A DNA stretch of 32,000 bases. It comes from Candidatus Heimdallarchaeota archaeon (lineage in GTDB: Archaea > Asgardarchaeota > Heimdallarchaeia > Heimdallarchaeales > Kariarchaeaceae). The stretch lies in NCBI GenBank assembly GCA_030149205.1, contig JASBSB010000003.1, positions 120,001 through 152,000 of the forward strand, read 5' to 3'. The translations under genes were made by a program, and so were the position numbers. Positions within the stretch are counted from its first letter, which is position 1. Every line of letters begins with the position of its first letter. Of the stretch, positions 5,348 to 17,380 are shown one piece after another. Under the pieces are notes generated by a model. The model saw nothing but the letters and a program-made list of their open reading frames with translations. It searched no databases and was not told where the DNA came from.

Positions 5348-6913
5348 TTGAAAAAGCCCAGTAACCAAACGTTAATCTCCGTGGTTTGGCTCACTATTGT
5401 AGGCTTCTTATTAATTTATTCAATGTCGGACATTCTGAAAATTACATCAGTACTCGAATTTGTTCAATATTTTGTTTTACTTCTTGTATTATCTCAGATT
5501 TTAGCGTTAATTGTTTCAGTGATCTTCCCTTCATCTGAAAGAAAGAAATTACACAGCTCCAGTTCTTCAGAACTCAGTAATATTGATGTTATAGTCCCAA
5601 TCAGGTCTGTTGACCCCTCAGTTTTAGAGTTAACACTCAAAGGAATTAGAGATTCAGACTATCCTCAAGAGTTAATCACTTTGGTTATTGGAGATGACAC
5701 CCCCAATATAAAATTGAGCGAAATTTATTCTAAACTTGCTACTACATACAAGGCTAGATACATTTACTTACCAGAAAACAAAAAATACAAGGCAGGTATG
5801 GTAAATTATTGTCTTCAGGATCTTGACTCCCCCCTTGTATGTCTATTAGATTATGATCAGATACCGACAACGAACTTTTTCAAAATTTGTATACGTGGAA
5901 TACAAGATGAGGATGATATAGCATTTGTTCAACTGATAAAAAGGTTCAGAGACCTAAAATCTATATTTAATAAATGGTCTGCATTATTATATCTGCAATT
6001 TTTTGAAGCTATGCAACGAACTAAAAATGAAAGAGGAACGGTATTATTTGCCGGTTCAACTGGCTGTTTTAGAAGAGAATACCTCAATGAAGTGGGTCTA
6101 TTTTCAGAAGAGACCTTTACTGAAGATGCAGACACATCAATAAAACTCATACTTAAAGGATATAGAGGCTTGTATCTGGATAGTGTAGGGTCATATGGAA
6201 CAGTGCCAAAGAATTATCAAGATCAAATCGCACAGCTTTGGCGTTGGTCACACGGGGGTAGTCACAGCCTTTCTCTTAGGGGCACTCTAATATTAAGGTC
6301 AAAAGAGATAAATCTTTCACAGAAAATTGACTTGCTTGCTACAATCGGAATCACACCATTGTTGGTGTTAATTTATGTATACACTCTAGCAGTTGCGGTT
6401 CTAGTTAATTTTAGATTGGATTATCAAAGCCCAATCCTGCTACCCTCTTCAAGATATTCTGTCTCAATTGCAGGAATTTTACCTTTGCTTGCAATAACGA
6501 CGTACTTACTTGTAGTCAGTTTGGCTTACTATGAAGCCAGAAAAGATCCAGAATTGGAGAAAATCTTTAAATGGCGTTATCTACCAATATTCACTTTGAT
6601 TGGAATTTCAAGCAATGTGTTAATACTCAGCTCGGGAATTACAGGGTTTTTAAGAATATTAGGACCGAACTCTAGATATGGAACATGGAACAGAAAATTT
6701 AACATTTGGTTAGAATCGGGAATTCTTGCTATTATTGGAATATTGGGGATCTATTTCTCAATCTTAATTTCAGATAATTCGAACTGGTTGTTCATATGTT
6801 TAATTTCTGTTTCTTTTGTTGTACCAATCATTGTTACAATTCTCTCTAGCTTACATCTGAAATTTAAGAATGAAGTTTCCAATTCACTGGATACAAAACA
6901 ACACAATTTTTAA
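5348..6913 (+). CDS. Processive GT2 glycosyltransferase (cellulose-synthase-like)
   Basis: D...DD, KAG, DYD (DxD), FAGS, TED and QLWRW (QxxRW) motifs, with N- and C-terminal TM helices. Confidence 0.9.
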   Translation: MKKPSNQTLISVVWLTIVGFLLIYSMSDILKITSVLEFVQYFVLLLVLSQILALIVSVIFPSSERKKLHSSSSSELSNIDVIVPIRSVDPSVLELTLKGIRDSDYPQELITLVIGDDTPNIKLSEIYSKLATTYKARYIYLPENKKYKAGMVNYCLQDLDSPLVCLLDYDQIPTTNFFKICIRGIQDEDDIAFVQLIKRFRDLKSIFNKWSALLYLQFFEAMQRTKNERGTVLFAGSTGCFRREYLNEVGLFSEETFTEDADTSIKLILKGYRGLYLDSVGSYGTVPKNYQDQIAQLWRWSHGGSHSLSLRGTLILRSKEINLSQKIDLLATIGITPLLVLIYVYTLAVAVLVNFRLDYQSPILLPSSRYSVSIAGILPLLAITTYLLVVSLAYYEARKDPELEKIFKWRYLPIFTLIGISSNVLILSSGITGFLRILGPNSRYGTWNRKFNIWLESGILAIIGILGIYFSILISDNSNWLFICLISVSFVVPIIVTILSSLHLKFKNEVSNSLDTKQHNF

Positions 6914-6935
6914 ACTTCAAAGAGACAGAACTTTA

Positions 6936-7355
6936 ATGGCAAAGAAAAAGGCAAGTGCCAAGGAGAAAAAAATTAAGGTTAAACCTGTCAAATGTAAAAA
7001 ATGTGGTCATTCCTTTATGCCGCATGAGGCTCAACCTAAGAAACAATGGACCCTAGTATCACCAATGCCAGACAAAGATGGAAATGTGACGATAACTATG
7101 ATGGCCAGTTGGGACTGTCCAAACTGTGGAAAGAACATTACTGGATCCATGGGGAAAACTAAAGGTGATCAAACAGGTCCATCAAAGAAAGAGTTGATCG
7201 ATGAGAAACTTGCAGCAAAAAGTAACTTTAATATCAATGAATTCGCAAAAAGTTTGAAAGTATCTGAAGAAAACCTCTCTAAGATTCTTAAGGTTCATAT
7301 CAAAAAGGGGAATGTTAAAGCGAAAATAGTAGATTCAGAATTTATTTTTGAATAG
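6936..7355 (+). CDS. Basic Zn-ribbon (Cren7-like) protein fused to a C-terminal winged helix
   Basis: Likely start is ATG 6936 (MAKKKASAK), because the ORF-track start overlaps the GT2 gene. Contains CKKC and CPNC, a PKKQWTLVSP segment like Cren7 PEKVWALAP, and a C-terminal INEFAKSLKVSEENLSKILKVHIKKGNV wHTH. Confidence 0.7.
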   Translation: MAKKKASAKEKKIKVKPVKCKKCGHSFMPHEAQPKKQWTLVSPMPDKDGNVTITMMASWDCPNCGKNITGSMGKTKGDQTGPSKKELIDEKLAAKSNFNINEFAKSLKVSEENLSKILKVHIKKGNVKAKIVDSEFIFE

Positions 7356-7369
7356 AGGGAATTAATTCT

Positions 7370-8137
7370 ATGAGACTATCCAAGGATGTTAACCAAAAAC
7401 TCATAAAGATGAACAAAAATTTTGTGTTCCCCTTGGAGGAGGAAACTTTGAAGAAGCTAACCAATCACGAACACGATTGGTCATCAGTTGAACTAAGAGG
7501 GGTCCTAAGATTATTCTATCTGAATTCCCTTTTCAATATACCTTTGGAAATTTATCACTTTCCGAATGAAATCAGAACTAAAGAATTAGCTGGTTATTTT
7601 GAGGGGTACAAGCAGACAGATATAGAGATCTTTGAAAAGGAAGAATTAGCAATCATTTCCAACTATTTTAAGAGCTCAAGATTGTACGTGGATAGGATCA
7701 CAGCGCCTATCTATTCAGTTGATAGATATTTTTTGTTCTATAAACTTCGAATATTATTGACACCATCACATTTTGATTTCTCACAAAGCAAACTATTTAC
7801 AACTTTGCAATCCACACTTGGATTGAAACAGGTTAGAATTAAATCTCTTAATAACTCTAAATTTTATGGGTCTAATGATTTAATAACAAAATTACGTGTT
7901 GCCACTCTTCAAGAAATTGCTGGGTTTCAGGGCCTTGATTATATAGAATTCAAGGGAGAAAGTGTGAAACATGGCCTTCGGGGACTTCAGGTTCGACAAG
8001 AAATTAAGGTCAACCTTGAAAATATAGGTCCAAAAATTATTGTTGGTGACTCTGACCTTACCCTGAAAGTTGGTTCAACACTTGAGATTCATTCTCTTAA
8101 GGGAATTCAGAAAGCCCATGAACTTTTGATCACATAA
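7370..8137 (+). CDS. Hypothetical protein
   Basis: 255-aa ORF starting 14 bp after the preceding gene; no family recognised with confidence. Confidence 0.7.
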   Translation: MRLSKDVNQKLIKMNKNFVFPLEEETLKKLTNHEHDWSSVELRGVLRLFYLNSLFNIPLEIYHFPNEIRTKELAGYFEGYKQTDIEIFEKEELAIISNYFKSSRLYVDRITAPIYSVDRYFLFYKLRILLTPSHFDFSQSKLFTTLQSTLGLKQVRIKSLNNSKFYGSNDLITKLRVATLQEIAGFQGLDYIEFKGESVKHGLRGLQVRQEIKVNLENIGPKIIVGDSDLTLKVGSTLEIHSLKGIQKAHELLIT

Positions 8138-9793: not shown

Positions 9794-9955
9794 AGTAATA
9801 CAATTCCGTCATGATTTTTATATTCATTCGTAGTTAGAGAAATTTCTTACAATTCTAGCATCTTTGTTTAACTATTACGTAATTTCTTTGCACAGAATGA
9901 ATTGTTAGATAACAAAAATTGAGAACCATTTTAAAGAGTTAAACGCAATAATATT

Positions 9956-11503
9956 GTGGAAAACTCTGATAAGATCCTAGAGTTATTTTCAAGAGGGAAA
10001 AAGCTAGCTAAAGAAAAAATGTATGACGAGGCAATTGCAAACTTTCTTGATGCTGCTGAATTAACAGTACAATATGCAAAAATAAGTACAGAGGAAGACA
10101 AACATAGATATGAACGAATCGCAAATATGATAATTGAAGAGATAAAAGAAACTAAGGCAATAAAGCACCTTACAACCACAAAATCAGTAGAATCTCATGA
10201 AATCGGGAATGATTTAAAACCTGAAGATATTCAGATGAAGGACGAACCTGTTGTTAGTGATTCATCAGCATTGGAAAGAGAAACAAGCAAAGAAAAAGTT
10301 TTGATCCCTGATGTTTTTGAAAATTATGTTCTTGCCCCAAAACAAGACATAGACATCCCACTGGGAGAGACCAAGGAAGGAATCTATCATTGGAAACCAA
10401 GTGAACTAATGAACGGTATAGTGATGATAACTGGAGGAAGTGGCTCTGGGAAGTCTGATACTTTAAAGAGCTTTGCAAAGGAGCTTACAGAAAGAGGATA
10501 CCCAGCGTTGGTGATTGACCTTCATGGTGATTTGACTCTTGAAATTCCAAAAATCGATATTAATTTCACAAGCAAGTTCGGGATTAACCCTCTAGAACTT
10601 TTTTCTGTTTCTTCTCTTGATGGGGGTCCAGAACCTCAGATAAATCGATTAGTCCAGTTATTCGATGATGCTGTTGAAGATGGTTTCTCTTCCACACAAC
10701 TGGCATTTATAAGAAATCTTCTAGGGTATGCCTATCAACAGGCACATATTATACAGGGAAATCCAGAAACTTGGAAGAATAGTCCACCTACCTTTAAGGA
10801 TGTCAAAAACATAGTTTCAACCTATCAGACACTGATAGAGATTGATCCAGAAAATTCGTACTTGGTCTCTCTTAACACAGCAACCAACGCTACACTGAAT
10901 GCTGTAATAAACCGACTTTCCCCAATTTTAAACCATCCAGCTTTTGTGACTAATGAAATGATACCAATCGGAAAATTAACTGAGTTTCCTTTGAGGATTA
11001 ACTTAAAGTCAATTCATACGGTTGATATGCAATATATTGTGGTTGACTCGATTTTGCACCAGCTGTTTTCAAGGTTAAGGTCAAAAGGACATGTTGAGGG
11101 AAGTTCTGATGAGGAAAGATTTCGAATGTTTGTTTTAATTGACGAAGTCAAAATACTTTCAGGGAACAGGGGAGACATTAACGATTCATTTAACATCTTA
11201 AACAGGTTAGCATCTGAGTCAAGAAAATTTGGGATAGGAATGATAGTTGCAAGTCAGGTAATACGACATTTTGGGAGAGATATTCGTTCAAATAGCGCGA
11301 CAAAGATAGTATTACGAGCAATGGACAATGAAGAGGCGAGAGTCAATGCAAAAGAGATTGAAATTGATAATAAATTACTCAAAGCCTTAAGAAAGCCAGG
11401 TTTAGGTTACATCAGGACGACCAATGATATTGTTGCAAAGAAAATACAAATCTTTCCTTTTGTTGACAGACCAATCCATATAGAGGTCCTTGAAGAGGAG
11501 TAA
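9956..11503 (+). CDS. HerA/FtsK-superfamily (DUF87-like) ATPase with N-terminal MIT-like three-helix domain
   Basis: Walker A GGSGSGKS, VIDLHGD, Walker B LIDE, arginine finger ESRKFG, ASQ. The N-terminal 70 aa (FSRGKKLAKEKMYDEAIANFLDAAE...KHRYERIANMIIEEIK) match the MIT pattern. Confidence 0.85.
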   Translation: MENSDKILELFSRGKKLAKEKMYDEAIANFLDAAELTVQYAKISTEEDKHRYERIANMIIEEIKETKAIKHLTTTKSVESHEIGNDLKPEDIQMKDEPVVSDSSALERETSKEKVLIPDVFENYVLAPKQDIDIPLGETKEGIYHWKPSELMNGIVMITGGSGSGKSDTLKSFAKELTERGYPALVIDLHGDLTLEIPKIDINFTSKFGINPLELFSVSSLDGGPEPQINRLVQLFDDAVEDGFSSTQLAFIRNLLGYAYQQAHIIQGNPETWKNSPPTFKDVKNIVSTYQTLIEIDPENSYLVSLNTATNATLNAVINRLSPILNHPAFVTNEMIPIGKLTEFPLRINLKSIHTVDMQYIVVDSILHQLFSRLRSKGHVEGSSDEERFRMFVLIDEVKILSGNRGDINDSFNILNRLASESRKFGIGMIVASQVIRHFGRDIRSNSATKIVLRAMDNEEARVNAKEIEIDNKLLKALRKPGLGYIRTTNDIVAKKIQIFPFVDRPIHIEVLEEE

Positions 11504-12775: not shown

Positions 12776-13093
12776 TAGTGAACCTCTTACAATTTGCTTA
12801 GTATTCTAAGACTTTAATAATTTTATTCTTTCGAGAGTTGAAGAAAGGTAAAGAGAAAGAAAATTTATGTCCATCTAGAGTTGAGAATTAATAGAAAACA
12901 AATGGTATTATTGACTTCAATGCTTTTACTTGGAATTTTAGGTTAACTTTTAATAAGTTTTTAGAAAGAAAAAACATAAGTTTAAACAATAATTAGCAAA
13001 TTGATGCAAAAAAAAATTTGTATTTCATCAATACTAAGAAATTACTTCGTATATTTTTTATATAAATAATATATCTTTGGATTACATAAAGAG

Positions 13094-15316
13094 ATGAAAT
13101 TAAAGGAATTAAAAATAGAAAATATTCTTGGATTTCTGGATCCAACTACAATTAAAATTTTAGATGATCTAATATATTTTGTAGGAGAAAATGGATCTGG
13201 TAAAACTAATCTTACTCGTATAATAAATTTTATAATACAGAATTTTGAGCGAGGGTCAGTTGAATATCATAAATTTAGGTTTTGGAATCCCAAAGAAAAA
13301 GCGAATTTTGAAATGATATTTGAACTAAATCAAAATGAACAAATTCTTTGGTCCAAAATAATTAGTTTAAAATTTATAATACTCTTTTCGCATCAATCTT
13401 CTGAACTTAAAATTACGAATGTAGAATTACTTTATAAATTCTATAACTTGTTAAAAAGAGAATTTAATAGCCAAAACGTTTTCAAATATATGATAATTTC
13501 AGGTGAAACAGATGAAAAATCACCTGAAACCATGAAATTTTATGCATCATTTTTAGATGGTAAGAAGAAACTTAAAACTTATATTGATATTTTTGGGATT
13601 GATTCAATCTTTTTTACAAATATACCGCAAATACCACAAGTTCACCAATCTGTGAGGACAATTTATGAAATAAAGCAATTTAATCTAATCTCTTTAAATG
13701 ATGTAAACAAAGTCTTATCAAATCTAGAACTACCAAACTTAATTGGGGGTAATTCAGAAGATGATATTGTAATAAATATTATGAATGGTATTCAAGGAAT
13801 TTTAAGACAAGAAAATAAAGATAATTTAGAATTTTTTTTTCGGACCAATGATTTAGATTATGTTACATTAGAGAAATTTAGGGCAATTAAAGAGTTTAAG
13901 GAAGATATGTTTTCACTTATCGAATTTTTCAGATCGAAGATTCCAAGATTCGACGATGAGAGAAATAATATTAATTTTTATCAATTGATAAACAGAATAT
14001 TAAATAGCAGCATAGATATATTGGTGGAAGATAGGGGATTAATAACAAATTCGGGATATTTTAGTTATTTACGTGGATATACTAAAAACTTAGTTCTTTC
14101 AACTTGTATTAATGATCTAATGAATATGAAAACTTCAATCGATCCAGTTAAGAGAAATCGGTACAATAAAATCAAAAAATCATTTCATAAGTTATTCAAT
14201 GTAGAATTTGAGCTTATCTACGAATATAAAATTCAAGAAGCTGACAATCTTAATCATGACCTACCAATGATGATAAATTTACAGAGTTTGGGAAGAAAAA
14301 TTAATGAATATGATTACATTATTGAATCGATAAACGATAAAAAATTCTATGGGGCTTTTCCAATGGTTGTTTTTATCACTGAAGATGAAACACAGTTTTC
14401 CTTAACCTCTGCACCTGGTGGTTATATTGAAGGTATAATGGTTCTTTACGCTCTTTTTAATTCAGAATCCAACACTGTTGTTTTAGATGAACCTGGAAAC
14501 AGATTTCATACGAAATATTTAATTAAACTAAAGGATTTAATTATTAAAAATCGTAAAAATATCGAGAAAACTTTAATTATCTTTACTCATAGCAAGGAAC
14601 TGATTGATGAGCAAAACTTAAATAATGTAAAAAGAATTATCAGAAAGAATAACAAATCTATTATCAAAAATGTTAATGAATTTATTGATAAATTAAATAT
14701 AAACCAACAAAATAAGATGATAACAAATCTTATTGAACCTTTTTTCTTAGATTTATTCTTCGAAAATAAGGTATTGTTTGTTGAAGGAAAATGGGATTCA
14801 AGGGTATTAACTGCATTAAATTACATATTAGAAAATCCTAAAAATATGAATTTTGATAATTTAAATCCATATGGAAAGATTGTACATACTATCATTAGGT
14901 GTGAAGGAAAGGGTTCATTACTACGAGCTGTACAAGTTTGTAAATTTTTTGAAATCGAATGGTTTGCGATAGTTGATTTTGATGCTATTTGTCAAAATAA
15001 ATTAAAAGAAAGTCAAGAGGTATGGAAAATTCTCGAAGTAGATGGTGTGGAAGACTTAAATGAATCTGTGTTGAGTGACAGCAATACAACCGCAACCCCA
15101 ACAGAAATTCTTGAGTACTGTGAAAATCATAAAATATTTAGTTGGGAAGGTGATTTAGAGAGTTCACTCTCCACTAATAAAGATAAACTTAAGCAGATGT
15201 CAATAACAGAATTAATTGAAAAATTAGAAGAGGAGATTAAAAATAAAAATAAGGAAATGATTAGATTAATTGACTTTCTTAAAGCTAAAGAGTTGTTAAG
15301 AGAACGCATATCATGA
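13094..15316 (+). CDS. OLD-family ATP-dependent nuclease (ABC ATPase + TOPRIM)
   Basis: Walker A GENGSGKT, signature-like SAPGG, Walker B VLDEP, H-switch FTHS, TOPRIM FFENKVLFVEGKWD and DFD, and a C-terminal DLE. Confidence 0.88.
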   Translation: MKLKELKIENILGFLDPTTIKILDDLIYFVGENGSGKTNLTRIINFIIQNFERGSVEYHKFRFWNPKEKANFEMIFELNQNEQILWSKIISLKFIILFSHQSSELKITNVELLYKFYNLLKREFNSQNVFKYMIISGETDEKSPETMKFYASFLDGKKKLKTYIDIFGIDSIFFTNIPQIPQVHQSVRTIYEIKQFNLISLNDVNKVLSNLELPNLIGGNSEDDIVINIMNGIQGILRQENKDNLEFFFRTNDLDYVTLEKFRAIKEFKEDMFSLIEFFRSKIPRFDDERNNINFYQLINRILNSSIDILVEDRGLITNSGYFSYLRGYTKNLVLSTCINDLMNMKTSIDPVKRNRYNKIKKSFHKLFNVEFELIYEYKIQEADNLNHDLPMMINLQSLGRKINEYDYIIESINDKKFYGAFPMVVFITEDETQFSLTSAPGGYIEGIMVLYALFNSESNTVVLDEPGNRFHTKYLIKLKDLIIKNRKNIEKTLIIFTHSKELIDEQNLNNVKRIIRKNNKSIIKNVNEFIDKLNINQQNKMITNLIEPFFLDLFFENKVLFVEGKWDSRVLTALNYILENPKNMNFDNLNPYGKIVHTIIRCEGKGSLLRAVQVCKFFEIEWFAIVDFDAICQNKLKESQEVWKILEVDGVEDLNESVLSDSNTTATPTEILEYCENHKIFSWEGDLESSLSTNKDKLKQMSITELIEKLEEEIKNKNKEMIRLIDFLKAKELLRERIS

Positions 15317-15760
15317 ATTACATAGATTGTTATTTATTAACACAGGGTATTCTATTAGTCATTACAATTATTAATAGTATACCTCTTTAGTGAACTAGGA
15401 AACGAAGTAAGTTTTGATTCTATTAAAAATGAATTTAAAATTCCTTCAATATTTTGATGAAAAATTTTCCACAATTGATTTTAAATATGAGGGAATTAGT
15501 TATAGTAACACTATTCATAAGCAGGCAAGATTAAGAATTGAAAAAAAATACAAGAACAGTTAAAACTGCCATGATTTGTACACCAATCATACAAACCAAT
15601 AGTCAAAGATGTGATAAAAAATTCCACCTGTTAACCCAAATCTTCCATCTGAATTATCAAAAGATGGAATTGTTAAAGGAAAGTTATTTGTCGAATCTCT
15701 TTCACTTCGGTGTAGTTCATTTTGGTATATCCACTTGATATGTCAAAACTATACCTGACT
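15313..15760 (+). pseudogene. Possible frameshifted gene remnant translationally coupled to the OLD gene
   Basis: ATG overlaps the OLD stop (ATGA at 15313-15316). Protein-like fragments continue across frames: ELGNEVSFDSIKNEFKIP / DEKFSTIDFKYEGISY...RIEKK / IQEQLKLP*FVHQSYKPIVKDVIK / KIPPVNPNLPSELSKDGIVKGKLFVE. Confidence 0.3.
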
Positions 15761-16256
15761 CTAGCAACACCAGACTTATCTGAAGATGCATAAATTTCAT
15801 AGATGAATTTCAAGAAATAATGAATGTTTTATGACATTATTCTGGTCACATATTATTAAATTGCTTTATTTTTATTTTTAAGATAAACTTAAAAGATTTG
15901 GTTGGATCAGAATTTTTAGGTGGAATTATCTTAATTCTCACGTCCGAGGTTGTTGAATAATGTGACATAAAAGCCTCAAGTGAACAAAAGATGACTGATG
16001 TTGGTAAGTTTAGATCTTCAGGTCTAGTAAAACTCAGAAAATTTGATACTTAGATAATAAAATTGCCAAAAGAATTTACTAAGGATGCAAAATTTTTGCG
16101 ACTACTAAAAGAACAAATTCAATAATTTTTACTAAAGACAATTACATGTATGGAACTGCTGTAACTGAAGGAAAATTCAGATTGAAATAGCAATATTTAT
16201 CGATATGAAAGAGAGTGACAGAAAAATTTGTATAATATTCAATGAATTGAACACTA

Positions 16257-17282
16257 GTGAGTAGAAGACAAACAAAAATTAATCTAATTGAAAATGGGAT
16301 TCATTCTTTGTATAAGGGTATTTCTCAGTTAGAAAGATATAAACAAAGAGGAAATAGTAGATTTGATTTGAAGGATTCAATTGTTTCAATTCACCATTCG
16401 GTAGAATTATTAATGAAACAAATATTGATTGAGGAGAATGAGCTCCTGATTTTTGACAACCTTACTAAATACCACAATCAATACAAAAACGCGAAAGAAC
16501 AAAATATTGATGTTTTTTCGCTCCAAAAACCACCTTACACGATATCTTTTGATGAAGCAGTTTCAAGGGTAAAATCATTTAAATCTCCAAGAAAACTAGA
16601 TGAACAGTTAGTAGATAAATTGAAAGAATTGAACCAATTAAGAAACAGAATTGAACATTACGAAATTGAGATGGATAAGGACATTGTGGAAACTCTAATA
16701 GCATACATTATAAACCCACTATTAGATCTTTTTAGGACACATATCCAAGATTTTTCGACACATGAAAATCGAATAAACAGTGAACTCCCCTCGCTAAGTT
16801 CTTCCTATAGAAGAATTTCTAATGAAATTATCATGCCAAAGATTAACAAAATATCACAAATAGAGAAGAAGCTTGAATATTTAATTTTCAAATTTGATCA
16901 ACAAAAAATTCAAAATAAACGCTTTGTAAATTTCTCAAATTTGAAAAATGTTCCAAAATACACATCATTGATTCAAAAAAAAATGTATTATAATTTCAAA
17001 TTTGATTATTCCTTTAAATCAAATTCACAATTATGGAGAATTGTTGTTAAAGTGAACCCAAATCAAAATACTTTAATTAATAACATAAATAGGTTTAGCA
17101 AGATCCTAAAACAAGATTCGAAGATTATAATATGGTTAATTTTGGTTTTTGAATTAAGCGATAAATTGTCCAATGCATCCAAGTTATTTTTCAGAAAACA
17201 ATATAAAAAACAAATACCAAACCGACTGTACATCACTTCAATTTCTGATTGGGAACAGTTTGTAGATTATTTCAATAATTAA
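16257..17282 (+). CDS. HEPN-superfamily protein with C-terminal degenerate PD-(D/E)xK-like domain
   Basis: N-terminal SIHHSVELLMK helix and RNRIEH (RxxxxH). The C-terminal FKFDY...WRIVVK resembles a REase core with Glu replaced by Val. Confidence 0.65.
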   Translation: MSRRQTKINLIENGIHSLYKGISQLERYKQRGNSRFDLKDSIVSIHHSVELLMKQILIEENELLIFDNLTKYHNQYKNAKEQNIDVFSLQKPPYTISFDEAVSRVKSFKSPRKLDEQLVDKLKELNQLRNRIEHYEIEMDKDIVETLIAYIINPLLDLFRTHIQDFSTHENRINSELPSLSSSYRRISNEIIMPKINKISQIEKKLEYLIFKFDQQKIQNKRFVNFSNLKNVPKYTSLIQKKMYYNFKFDYSFKSNSQLWRIVVKVNPNQNTLINNINRFSKILKQDSKIIIWLILVFELSDKLSNASKLFFRKQYKKQIPNRLYITSISDWEQFVDYFNN

Positions 17283-17380
17283 TTTTTATTCATTTAAATA
17301 CTCTCTTCCCACATTTATAATATCAAGTGTCAAGGCATCCTATTTCTCCTTATTATTCAATTCACAATCCCATAGAGTTT

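Follow-up and report, generated by a model that had tools for sequence, protein, structure and literature searches.

A MIT-like helical bundle fused to a HerA/FtsK-class ATPase in one family of Heimdallarchaeota: a candidate DNA translocase that may dock on ESCRT-III

Here, we describe a gene, P0001, in which a MIT-like domain is joined to a motor of the DNA-translocase class. The gene lies within a 32,000-nucleotide stretch of Heimdallarchaeota DNA (the window), and its product is predicted to have three parts: an N-terminal three-helix bundle, a disordered linker, and a complete HerA/FtsK-superfamily ATPase that lacks a HAS barrel. We found no description of such a fusion in the literature searched, in keeping with an earlier, sequence-only reading of this DNA, to which no characterisation of it was known. 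We tentatively interpret P0001 as a domesticated ring-shaped DNA translocase, derived from a mobile element, whose MIT-like adaptor would dock on ESCRT-III; we put the probability of this interpretation at roughly 0.4.

Results

Gene and protein layout

The P0001 reading frame is genuine, as judged from its translation and from the aligned N-termini of 19 homologues, which match its GTG start. There are 22 near-full-length homologues, and the named ones all come from Heimdallarchaeota or Kariarchaeaceae. Each motif quoted in the sequence-only reading is found in the protein, and an alignment of 20 sequences of the P0001 family (A1) shows most of the motif residues to be invariant. No N-terminal membrane segment is seen in the protein sequence. 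The features of the gene, by position in the window, are as follows.

9930 to 9936, plus strand: TTTAAAG, read from the sequence as a putative archaeal TATA-like box, 20–26 nt upstream of the GTG
9956 to 11503, plus strand: whole gene P0001, MIT-like/linker/HerA-FtsK-class ATPase fusion, 515 aa, GTG start (open reading frame list and translation)
9956 to 10189, plus strand: MIT-like three-helix bundle, residues 1–78, with helices 2–19, 23–43 and 46–77 (AF2)
10190 to 10312, plus strand: charged, disordered linker, about residues 79–119 (pLDDT <50 for residues 76–116, full-length AF2 model)
10313 to 11470, plus strand: HerA/FtsK-superfamily P-loop ATPase of the DndH-C/MAD8 type, about residues 120–505 (PADLOC, Pfam, fold match)
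10433 to 10456, plus strand: Walker A, GGSGSGKS, residues 160–167 (G160 to K166 invariant in A1)
10628 to 10930, plus strand: all-helical insert in the P-loop domain, about residues 225–325, six helices (DSSP on the AF2 model)
11135 to 11146, plus strand: Walker B, LIDE, residues 394–397 (I395, D396 and E397 invariant in A1)
11219 to 11257, plus strand: SRKFG (422–426) through ASQ (432–434), with R423 as candidate arginine finger and Q434 as sensor-1 (both invariant in A1)

If TTTAAAG does act as a TATA-like box, its distance from the start codon would imply that the mRNA is possibly leaderless.

The motor domain

The sequence-only reading had proposed a full HerA/FtsK motor without the usual HAS barrel, and this is borne out by the invariant motifs, the Pfam and fold matches, and the AF2 model. 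Besides the Walker motifs, P0001 carries DLHGD at residues 188–192. Core strand 4 corresponds to residues 427–433 of the AF2 model, with R423 upstream of it and Q434 at its end; an arginine finger upstream of core strand 4 together with a sensor-1 glutamine is diagnostic of the HerA/FtsK clade (PMC10853773). Among PADLOC families, the motor matches DndH best (1.7e-24), followed by mad8 (3.1e-22), and its Pfam matches are TrwB_AAD_bind, DUF87 and HerA_C, the first of which arises from the region of the all-helical insert. The best fold match is the C-domain of DndH (7es4; E 7e-16, TM by target 0.76); HerA (4d2i and 9x1m), VirB4 (4ag5) and TrwB (1e9s) come next, all with probability 1.00. Between linker and P-loop, the AF2 model contains no HAS barrel, just two short strands before the Walker A strand. 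By analogy with these relatives, the motor would be expected to assemble as a ring of six subunits around a central pore, and DNA would be its probable substrate.

The N-terminal bundle

The N-domain is predicted to have a MIT-type fold. Modelled alone with AlphaFold2 on the family alignment, it reaches a mean pLDDT of 92.1 and a pTM of 0.81, and MIT domains make up most of its 50 best Foldseek matches in the PDB (TM 0.7–0.85, E 0.02–0.5), among them those of Vps4, MITD1, NRBF2, katanin p60 and Sulfolobus CdvC (2w2u). A shape search of the Atlas likewise returns mostly MIT domains (KATNA1_MIT, NRBF2_MIT, Vps4 and MITD1; TM 0.75–0.93). By these three lines of evidence, the N-domain is predicted to have the fold that defines a MIT domain, an isolated asymmetric three-helix bundle of ~70–80 residues with TPR-like packing. 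VIA-align also places katanin and Vps4 MIT domains at the top (Z 11–12.5), with the TPR of NASP, SRP68 and designed bundles at Z 11–12, within 1 Z unit of MIT; because of these ties, Z alone does not discriminate.

By sequence, the N-domain is also TPR-like and resembles single TPR units. When its profile is aligned by hhalign to those of 27 Heimdall Vps4 MIT domains, the match extends over 69 columns and all three helices (88% probability, E 3.2e-6); the best TPR matches reach 57–75% over 36–49 columns and cover helices 1–2 only. The likeness to Vps4 MIT over three helices is thus suggestive of homology, without being decisive. The family stays far below the cut-off of the Pfam MIT model (PF04212, which belongs to clan TPR), with a best score of 13.8 bits (E 0.066) versus 30, and a Pfam scan of 20 family members finds MIT in 3 and TPR_2 in 4 at E <= 10; in the scan of the window's own genome, the MIT match of the N-domain has an E of 0.35. 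Searched by sequence against PDB chains, the N-domain profile picks up TPR proteins as well as designed helical repeats but not a single MIT chain, so sequence alone cannot separate MIT from TPR for this domain. A search of a large database of longer proteins, with its reach limited by a word index, recovers the fused family and two TPR proteins, and neither Vps4 nor new architectures. The earlier assignment of a MIT domain therefore stands in part: structure prediction, which had been suggested as a check, yields a bundle that matches mainly MIT domains, and the Vps4 profile match agrees; against it are the sub-threshold Pfam score and the TPR-like sequence.

Conservation differs between the two ends of the protein, with identities to the window's copy of 12–32% for the N-domain versus about 48% for the motor. 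The linker differs in length and sequence among homologues, with gaps at A1 columns of about 90–195. Since residues 76–116 have pLDDT below 50, we estimate the linker at about 40–55 aa, which replaces the earlier figure of roughly 60 aa.

The N-domain profile also matches proteins of 236–277 aa that have no ATPase, found in 8 of the 12 genomes of the GTDB family to which the window's genome belongs. These separate carriers indicate that the N-domain acts as an independent module, and its presence on a second protein family of the lineage suggests a small adaptor system peculiar to that lineage. The 236-aa paralogue matches no Pfam family, has no homologues by word search, and has matches in the Atlas that are all sub-threshold.

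Distribution and origin of the fusion

The fusion is confined, among 400 Asgard genomes, to the GTDB family of the window's genome. Seven of the 12 genomes of this family have it, two of them with a second copy; the five without it are 68–89% complete. The survey that the sequence-only reading had called for thus finds the fusion within one family and, among the genomes covered, in no other. From such a distribution, an accessory role seems likelier than a core one in division.

Outside the fused clade, the nearest sequence relatives are bacterial and share 35–38% identity across the whole motor. They are about 410–830 aa long and occur in integrase/AlpA/Rep islands. Their N-termini are short or of the Rep or DndH-like kind: the motors are either fused to a YagK/YfjJ Gp2-type Rep or DndH-like part, or encoded behind the genes for integrase, AlpA and Rep. 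In a phylogenetic tree, 23 fused sequences form a single clade (SH-aLRT 100) on a long stem, with the window's sequence branching near the base, and ATPases of bacterial integrative elements lie in the same radiation. The fusion arose once. The sequence-only reading had held that a conjugative or defence affiliation with sporadic spread would refute its proposal. Such an affiliation is seen in part, in the kinship to DndH-C/MAD8 and to bacterial integrative elements and in the restriction to 7 of 12 genomes of one family; against it are the monophyly of the fused clade and the finding that no integrase or replication-initiator domain is annotated alongside in the four contexts described below.

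Genomic neighbourhood

In the window, P0001 is flanked by genes for an aldehyde dehydrogenase, a 2-hydroxyacid dehydrogenase, an AsnC-type regulator and a glycosyltransferase (Pfam scan). As the sequence-only reading had noted, none of the window neighbours scanned is nurA, mre11 or rad50. Nor were DndF or DndG domains, a methyltransferase or other MADS components found among them. We compared four contexts, namely the window neighbours (Pfam scan) and those of three homologues (precomputed Pfam annotation). No neighbour of the fusion is conserved across the four, and no integrase, Rep/replication-initiator, nuclease or methylase domain is annotated beside it, where several adjacent genes have no Pfam match. 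Two congeneric genomes lack the gene; with these, synteny extends to the aldehyde dehydrogenase alone, all other neighbours being different.

At a distance of 1.6 kb from the P0001 gene is a low-GC stretch that includes an OLD-family nuclease (13094–15316). The GC content of P0001 is about 0.37, as in the core genome, that of the islet is 0.24–0.29, and two housekeeping genes lie between them. Linkage of an OLD-family nuclease to the fusion is not seen in the three homologue contexts.

ESCRT-III as a candidate partner

The window's genome encodes a canonical Vps4 and two ESCRT-III proteins, with the Vps4 gene beside ESCRT-III; this locus is on another contig, not near P0001. A DUF87 match at 4 kb from the ESCRT cluster of this genome turned out to come from a MeaB GTPase. 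Both ESCRT-III proteins end in a MIM1-like amphipathic helix, S-E-L-E-K-E-I-E-x-L-R-K, and that of ESCRT-IIIA is kept in 10 genomes of the family.

Complex prediction, another check proposed by the sequence-only reading, gives weak support for an N-domain/ESCRT-IIIA pair: with the 45-aa ESCRT-IIIA tail, the score is 0.44, versus 0.01 for the best of 3 controls. At least 59% of contacts are common to the runs, and the pLDDT of the partner is at least 53. Of 80 solved complexes, 58 reach the mark used for a pass, as do 2 of 110 mismatched pairs; only 7 of those 80 reach it with a score at or under 0.60, and so do both passing mismatches. One caveat is that MIT–MIM1 complexes have already been solved, so that a pass at 0.44 may reflect likeness to these, or memory on the part of the predictor, rather than binding. 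ESCRT-III is, tentatively, the best single candidate partner of the N-domain.

A hint of an independent link between HerA-type motors and ESCRT-III in Asgard archaea comes from gene order in another family of the same class (f7). All 12 genomes of f7 encode an unrelated 888-aa HerA-type ATPase, and in at least 6 of them its gene precedes a same-strand ESCRT-III gene by 1.3–2.9 kb. No phmmer match links this protein to the P0001 motor at E <= 10, and a search of the window's family for it at E <= 1e-20 finds no copy. We therefore rejected the idea of a 'Rosetta stone' relation between P0001 and this ESCRT-linked HerA. Nor are the two distributions cleanly complementary: at these thresholds, families f3–f6 have neither, except for a partial match to the f7 HerA (38% identity) in one f5 genome.

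Discussion

MIT domains are the standard route of recruitment to ESCRT-III in eukaryotic and archaeal proteins, and FtsK clears DNA at the bacterial septum. To our knowledge, Vps4/CdvC is the only MIT carrier described in archaea. We propose that the motor module entered the ancestor of one Heimdall family (Kariarchaeaceae in the records of the homologues) from a bacterial mobile-element lineage, and then fused once to a MIT-like three-helix bundle via a flexible linker of 40–55 residues. In a hexamer, six docking domains would grip with avidity a polymer that displays many short helical motifs, and the likeliest target would be the MIM1-like C-terminal helix of the genome's ESCRT-III subunits. 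This could gather the motor at membrane necks coated with ESCRT-III, where it would pump double-stranded DNA, either clearing it from a closing neck, as FtsK does, or moving it through the neck. Taken to its full extent, the proposal would make P0001 a second, DNA-directed client of ESCRT-III, in which six MIT-like domains dock a mobile-element pump that clears or drives chromosomal, plasmid or viral DNA at a neck; we regard this extended version as rather unlikely.

It is also quite possible that P0001 is a DNA motor, domesticated or still engaged in conflict, that uses a generic TPR-type adaptor to bind another partner, and that ESCRT-III is uninvolved. Defence systems have repeatedly captured HerA/FtsK motors (PMC10853773). 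In such a case, a single TPR-like unit plus a capping helix might bind the motor itself or another protein, such as a nuclease, a sensor or a mobile-element protein, and P0001 would serve to defend against foreign DNA or to maintain it, as in proposed 'HerA/FtsK capture' systems. DndH-C and mad8 are indeed the best PADLOC families and the DndH C-domain the best fold match; the nearest relatives are bacterial Rep- or DndH-like fusions or members of integrase/AlpA/Rep islands; the spread is narrow and patchy, with a second copy in two genomes; the N-domain profile matches TPR proteins by sequence; and a low-GC stretch with a nuclease lies close by. However, defence ATPases of the HerA/FtsK class usually have fixed partners, whereas no nuclease, methylase, integrase or Rep is annotated adjacent to the fusion in the four contexts, several adjacent genes there being without a Pfam match. 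The GC content of the gene is that of the core genome rather than that of the islet, with housekeeping genes between the two. A fused clade of single origin, with a long stem and the window's sequence near its base, also speaks against this alternative, as does the full three-helix profile match, which is to Vps4 MIT and not to TPR.

Two other possibilities leave DNA or the partner out. The N-domain might be a regulatory or assembly part of the motor, such as an autoinhibitory cap or an aid to oligomerisation, with no external partner, and its likeness to MIT might reflect a common bundle geometry. Helical bundles do score high against many unrelated folds, as in the VIA-align ties at Z 11–12, and the N-domain is far less conserved than the motor; yet the same profile is found in the ATPase-less proteins of 8 of the 12 family genomes, and the linker, disordered and variable in length, is more in keeping with a tethered docking domain than with a fixed cap. 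We find this explanation improbable. Even less probable, in our view, is a second ESCRT-III remodelling motor that acts on protein, in which the MIT-like domain would take hold of the tails and an FtsK-like ring would thread or strip the polypeptide. The MIT/linker/ring-ATPase layout is that of Vps4, and EccC ATPases, which are FtsK/SpoIIIE-type motors of type VII secretion, recognise the C-terminal tails of their protein substrates; weak NCBIfam matches to EccCb (2.5e-5) and EccCa (1.7e-3), among many FtsK-class ones, and the weak ESCRT-IIIA tail score, with the caveat of likeness to solved MIT–MIM1 complexes, would agree with this. But the EccC matches are far under their cut-offs, the closest characterised relatives (DndH-C, HerA, TrwB and VirB4) work on DNA or DNA–protein complexes, and a normal Vps4 is kept beside the genome's ESCRT-III genes.

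If our preferred reading of P0001 as an ESCRT-III-docked DNA translocase is true, it would extend the list of Asgard ESCRT-III clients to DNA handling, and supply a concrete candidate for keeping DNA out of, or moving DNA through, necks cut by ESCRT. In the extended, rather unlikely version, it would also represent a functional analogue of septal FtsK, independently built in the archaeal lineage closest to eukaryotes. Even with a partner other than ESCRT-III, P0001 would be a clean case in which an archaeon has taken over the motor of a bacterial mobile element and equipped it with a new targeting domain. Its importance is limited by its narrow spread (7 of 12 genomes of one family).

Like Vps4/CdvC, katanin p60 and spastin, P0001 is predicted to have the order MIT-type bundle, flexible linker, ring P-loop motor, and MIT structures of Vps4/CdvC superpose on its N-domain (Foldseek, VIA-align). 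Against docking on ESCRT-III, the folds closest to the N-domain include the MIT domains of katanin and NRBF2, which are not known to bind ESCRT-III, and the gene has neither a conserved neighbour in the four contexts nor a place near the ESCRT locus. The motor of Vps4/CdvC is AAA+, whereas that of P0001 is of the HerA/FtsK class, and its gene lies outside the ESCRT cluster. The septal DNA translocase FtsK/SpoIIIE is another ring DNA pump of this superfamily, and the proposed logic is common to both, with an N-terminal targeting part and a long linker placing the motor at the division apparatus. FtsK/SpoIIIE has a membrane anchor and a gamma (KOPS-reading) domain; P0001 lacks both, and its targeting would use the soluble MIT-like domain instead. 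FtsK proper was rejected as an identity for P0001, which has no match to FtsK_SpoIIIE (PF01580) at E <= 1, no anchor and no gamma domain.

DndH-C is the best match of P0001 by fold and by PADLOC, and the sensor-1 glutamine and upstream arginine finger are common to the two. The N-terminal ~1300 residues of DndH (inactive helicase half, TRDs, inactive methylase and REase) are absent from P0001, which has the MIT-like bundle in their place. P0001 is not a DndH: its 515 residues match just positions 1280–1655 of a profile of 1715, and no DndF or DndG was found among the neighbours scanned. The PADLOC profile of MAD8, from the methylation-associated defence system (MADS), covers residues 132–492 of P0001 at nearly full profile length; MAD8 lacks a MIT-like N-domain, its profile beginning at the motor. 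MAD8 is encoded in a multi-gene MADS locus alongside a methylase and the MAD3–MAD4 nuclease module. An assignment as MAD8 of a MADS was also set aside, the flanking genes being metabolic, with no methyltransferase among the neighbours scanned. The integrative-element ATPases of bacteria share their islands with integrase and AlpA genes, whereas the P0001 family is archaeal, has the MIT-like domain, and has no integrase or Rep annotated around it.

Finally, P0001 shares its P-loop core with archaeal HerA (DUF87, HerA_C) and is structurally similar to the Sulfolobus and Thermococcus proteins. It is not a canonical HerA of the HerA–NurA helicase, having no HAS barrel, an NCBIfam HerA score of 43 bits versus a cut-off of 970, and no nurA, mre11 or rad50 neighbour. 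The ESCRT-linked HerA-type ATPase of other Asgard lineages, f7 among them, is a further HerA/FtsK-superfamily motor associated with ESCRT-III in Asgard archaea, in its case by gene order. It belongs to a different clade and is longer (888–1000 aa), and its link is one of neighbourhood; P0001 instead has the MIT-like fusion.

The fused gene and its surroundings

The gene under study encodes an N-terminal domain (N-domain; residues 1–78), a linker and a motor. A search of 5.8 billion proteins recovers 22 near-full-length relatives, and those that are named all come from Heimdallarchaeota or Kariarchaeaceae metagenome bins. The gene and catalytic motifs proposed in the sequence-only reading stand, and the GTG start agrees with the N-termini of homologues in an alignment of 20 sequences (A1). 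The sole correction concerns the linker, put earlier at ~60 residues and disordered over ~40–55 in the full-length model.

Fused gene, its motifs (most residues invariant in the 20-sequence alignment) and a nearby nuclease
Window 9956–11503, + strand: fused ATPase gene, one open frame of 515 codons, GTG start
Residues 160–167: GGSGSGKS
Residues 188–192: DLHGD
Residues 394–397: LIDE
Residues 422–426: SRKFG
Residues 432–434: ASQ
Window 13094–15316, + strand: OLD-family nuclease, 740 aa, OLD-like TOPRIM plus AAA_21/AAA_15

Some length variation is evident among the homologues. In one subclade (P0011, P0012, P0015, P0018, P0023), which includes the Heimdall LC_2 protein, A1 columns ~570–604 hold an extra conserved C-terminal tail of ~40 aa, absent from the window's protein; in another (P0017, P0019, P0021, P0022), the linker is far longer.

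Among the flanking genes, that for an aldehyde dehydrogenase is divergent, those for a 2-hydroxyacid dehydrogenase and an AsnC-type regulator are convergent, and another encodes a glycosyltransferase; a Pfam scan bears out the earlier statement that nurA, mre11 and rad50 are absent among them. Downstream of the glycosyltransferase lie two ORFs, at 6870–7355 (+, 161 aa) and 7370–8137 (+, 255 aa), with no Pfam match at E ≤ 0.001. The GC content of the fused gene (~0.37) is at core-genome level. Two genes away begins a stretch of lower GC (window ~13000–17300; 0.24–0.29, against 0.32–0.39 elsewhere), which contains the OLD-family nuclease, followed by a 341-aa ORF (16257–17282) with no Pfam match, and looks like a small defence islet.

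The N-terminal domain

In an AlphaFold2 model based on the family alignment, residues 1–78 form three helices (2–19, 23–43 and 46–77; mean pLDDT 92). In a Foldseek search of the PDB, MIT domains make up the majority of the best 50 matches (TM 0.7–0.85, E 0.02–0.5), including those of yeast and human Vps4, MITD1, NRBF2, katanin p60, calpain-7 and Sulfolobus CdvC; the modest E-values are to be expected with a helical domain of this size. Searching the ESM Atlas by shape brings up KATNA1_MIT, NRBF2_MIT, Vps4 and MITD1 clusters (TM 0.75–0.93), and VIA-align, run against 48,161 chains, places katanin and Vps4 MIT domains at Z 11–12.5, tied with NASP TPR, SRP68 and designed bundles. We consider the MIT-type fold of the modelled domain to be established.

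The domain scores just 13.8 bits with Pfam MIT, where the cut-off is 30; Pfam TPR_2 scores about equally, and the best matches of the domain profile, among PDB sequences and in a large protein database, are TPR proteins. The best of these cover helices 1–2 only (57–75%); a profile of 27 aligned Vps4 MIT domains, drawn from genomes within the class, matches over 69 columns and all three helices (88% probability, E 3.2e-6). Hence the MIT domain claimed earlier holds as a fold and is ambiguous as a family assignment, for which the sequence evidence is suggestive but not proof. Our reading is that of an MIT-type bundle, related to TPRs as MIT domains are.

The N-domain profile finds ATPase-less proteins of 236–277 aa as well, in eight of the 12 genomes of the window's family (Kariarchaeaceae), and such proteins are present in the two congeners that have no fusion. 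Occurring on separate proteins too, the domain behaves like an adaptor module that can be reused. One of these proteins, P0187, is encoded in the window's own genome. Its N-domain is followed by a proline-rich linker and a ~130-aa, alpha/beta-looking C-terminal domain, a layout reminiscent of MITD1, in which MIT is joined to a second domain. Pfam, a word search and the Atlas return nothing for this 236-aa protein, and similar ORFs of 241–277 aa occur in seven other genomes of the family. In f7, another family of the class, a Vps4 MIT query also matches second ORFs of 266–305 aa (E 2e-9 to 1e-5), so MIT-bearing proteins besides Vps4 may exist in other Heimdall lineages.

Further N-domain and MIT matches
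Own genome, contig 1, 133092–133313 (locus L024:1501–2211): second N-domain protein (P0187), 236 aa; family profile E 1.4e-4, Pfam MIT E 0.044 (weak)
f7 genome G075, C11:74693–74902, − strand: short ORF with Vps4 MIT match
f7 genome G076, C393:1778–1987, − strand: short ORF with Vps4 MIT match

The motor and its origin

Residues ~120–505 form a P-loop ATPase (Pfam TrwB_AAD_bind and DUF87). The full-length model (pLDDT 81) best matches the DndH C-domain (7es4; E 7e-16, TM by target 0.76), followed by HerA, VirB4 and TrwB. PADLOC likewise returns the C-terminal part of DndH (1.7e-24), along with MAD8 (3.1e-22); in NCBIfam, the CedD, HerA and CedB matches are weak and lie far under their cut-offs. 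A comparative study of Dnd systems places the DndH motor in the HerA/FtsK class, members of which have been captured repeatedly from cellular and mobile sources (PMC10853773). R423 and Q434, the candidate arginine finger and sensor-1 Q diagnostic of that clade, are invariant, with a modelled strand (427–433) between them. The model contains a six-helix insert (residues ~225–325) inside the P-loop domain and, as stated in the sequence-only reading, no HAS barrel. Lacking that barrel and scoring far below the NCBIfam HerA cut-off, the protein is not HerA proper; FtsK proper, DndH and a MADS component were also rejected as identities.

Searched exhaustively with HMMER, 1.84 billion representatives yielded 1081 motor relatives, with a sharp fall outside the fused family (E 1e-104 to 1e-59). 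The next relatives share 35–38% identity over the motor only, and their N-termini differ widely, being DndH-like (~1570–1740 aa), YagK/YfjJ Gp2-type replication-initiator domains, or ~60 residues only. Those with a taxonomic name are all bacterial (Burkholderia, Agitococcus, Fluviicoccus, Pseudanabaena, Blastocatellales), and two short bacterial forms sit in islands with the order integrase, AlpA, (Rep), ATPase. A quick maximum-likelihood tree built from 101 motor domains groups the 23 fused sequences in a single, long-stemmed clade (SH-aLRT 100), with that of the window branching near the clade's base. A survey across Asgard lineages, proposed earlier, places the fused gene in one GTDB family only, that of the window, where seven of 12 genomes carry it and two of these have it twice; it is absent from all 71 other genomes of the class and from the remaining genomes among the 400 Asgard searched. 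The five family genomes without it are 68–89% complete. Across four genomic contexts (the window and three homologues), there is no common neighbour and no annotated integrase or Rep domain (Pfam scan for the window, precomputed annotation for the homologues). The simplest history would be that a bacterial mobile-element motor was acquired once, was fused once to an MIT-like domain, and has since been inherited mostly vertically as a non-essential gene.

ESCRT-III as a candidate partner

The canonical ESCRT cluster of the window's genome lies on a different contig from the fused gene. The two ORFs ahead of Vps4 are putatively of ESCRT-II type, and the ESCRT-IIIA and ESCRT-IIIB genes abut, one base apart.

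ESCRT-associated loci
Own genome, contig 8, ~41100–45800 (L064:3157–7823): ESCRT cluster, with Vps4 (381 aa), Vps25-like ESCRT-II subunit (229 aa; Pfam ESCRT-II), ESCRT-IIIA (206 aa) and ESCRT-IIIB (223 aa)
f7 genome G072, contig 10 (L058:9557–12223), − strand: example of the 888-aa f7 ATPase

Both ESCRT-III C-termini contain an amphipathic helix fitting the MIM1 pattern S/D-L-E-x-E-I/L-E-x-L-R/K-K, and that of ESCRT-IIIA is kept in ten genomes of the window's family. MIM1-like, Ile-substituted motifs have been reported for Asgard Vps2/24/46-type subunits (PMC7240154). Complex prediction, a check suggested in the sequence-only reading, combined the N-domain alignment with a 45-residue ESCRT-IIIA tail alignment and gave a weak pass, 0.44 versus 0.01 for the best of three controls; at least 59% of contacts are shared between runs, and partner pLDDT is at least 53. 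Of 80 solved complexes, 58 attain the mark, as do two of 110 mismatched pairs; at 0.60 or under, it is attained by only seven of those 80 complexes and by both mismatches that passed. Because MIT–MIM1 complexes are solved, the weak pass may reflect likeness, not binding. The prediction favours N-domain/ESCRT-IIIA binding by a small increment only.

In f7, all 12 genomes encode an 888-aa DUF87/HerA_C ATPase. In at least six, its gene shares a strand with one of the two ESCRT-III genes and lies 1.3–2.9 kb upstream of it; at the one locus inspected, a ~280-aa gene that belongs to no known family separates the two. The two f7 ESCRT-III genes are non-adjacent, in contrast to those of the other families of the class. 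This ATPase has no phmmer match to the motor of the fused protein (E ≤ 10), and a search of the window's family does not recover it (E ≤ 1e-20). It provides an independent hint that ring motors of the HerA/FtsK superfamily work with ESCRT-III in Asgard archaea, and is not evidence about the fused protein.

Discussion

The MIT-like–HerA/FtsK fusion is a new architecture inside the HerA/FtsK superfamily. Full-text literature searches that paired MIT with HerA or FtsK, in an Asgard or ESCRT context, returned nothing, and the most comprehensive survey of ESCRT systems (PMC10936438) makes no mention of HerA, DUF87, translocase or P-loop, in agreement with the earlier view that the fusion is uncharacterised. 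How much weight the protein carries depends on the putative binding of its N-domain to ESCRT-III.

The best single explanation, with a probability of about 0.4, is that the fused protein translocates DNA and is recruited to ESCRT-III polymers, where the N-domain would dock and so bring in the tethered ring motor. The main alternative, tenable if doubtful, keeps the DNA motor and takes the N-domain as an adaptor of generic TPR type that serves some other partner, in a defence or mobile-element role. The relatives of the motor favour this alternative, as do the distribution, which is patchy and narrow, the TPR-like signal in the N-domain sequence, and the presence of katanin and NRBF2 domains among the nearest MIT folds; to our knowledge, the katanin and NRBF2 MIT domains do not bind ESCRT-III. 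A purely intramolecular role for the N-domain seems unlikely, and a protein-directed remodeller of ESCRT-III slightly more so. With its docking bundle, floppy tether and ring motor, the fused protein has the layout of Vps4, katanin and spastin, in which several weak MIT contacts lead to avid polymer binding.
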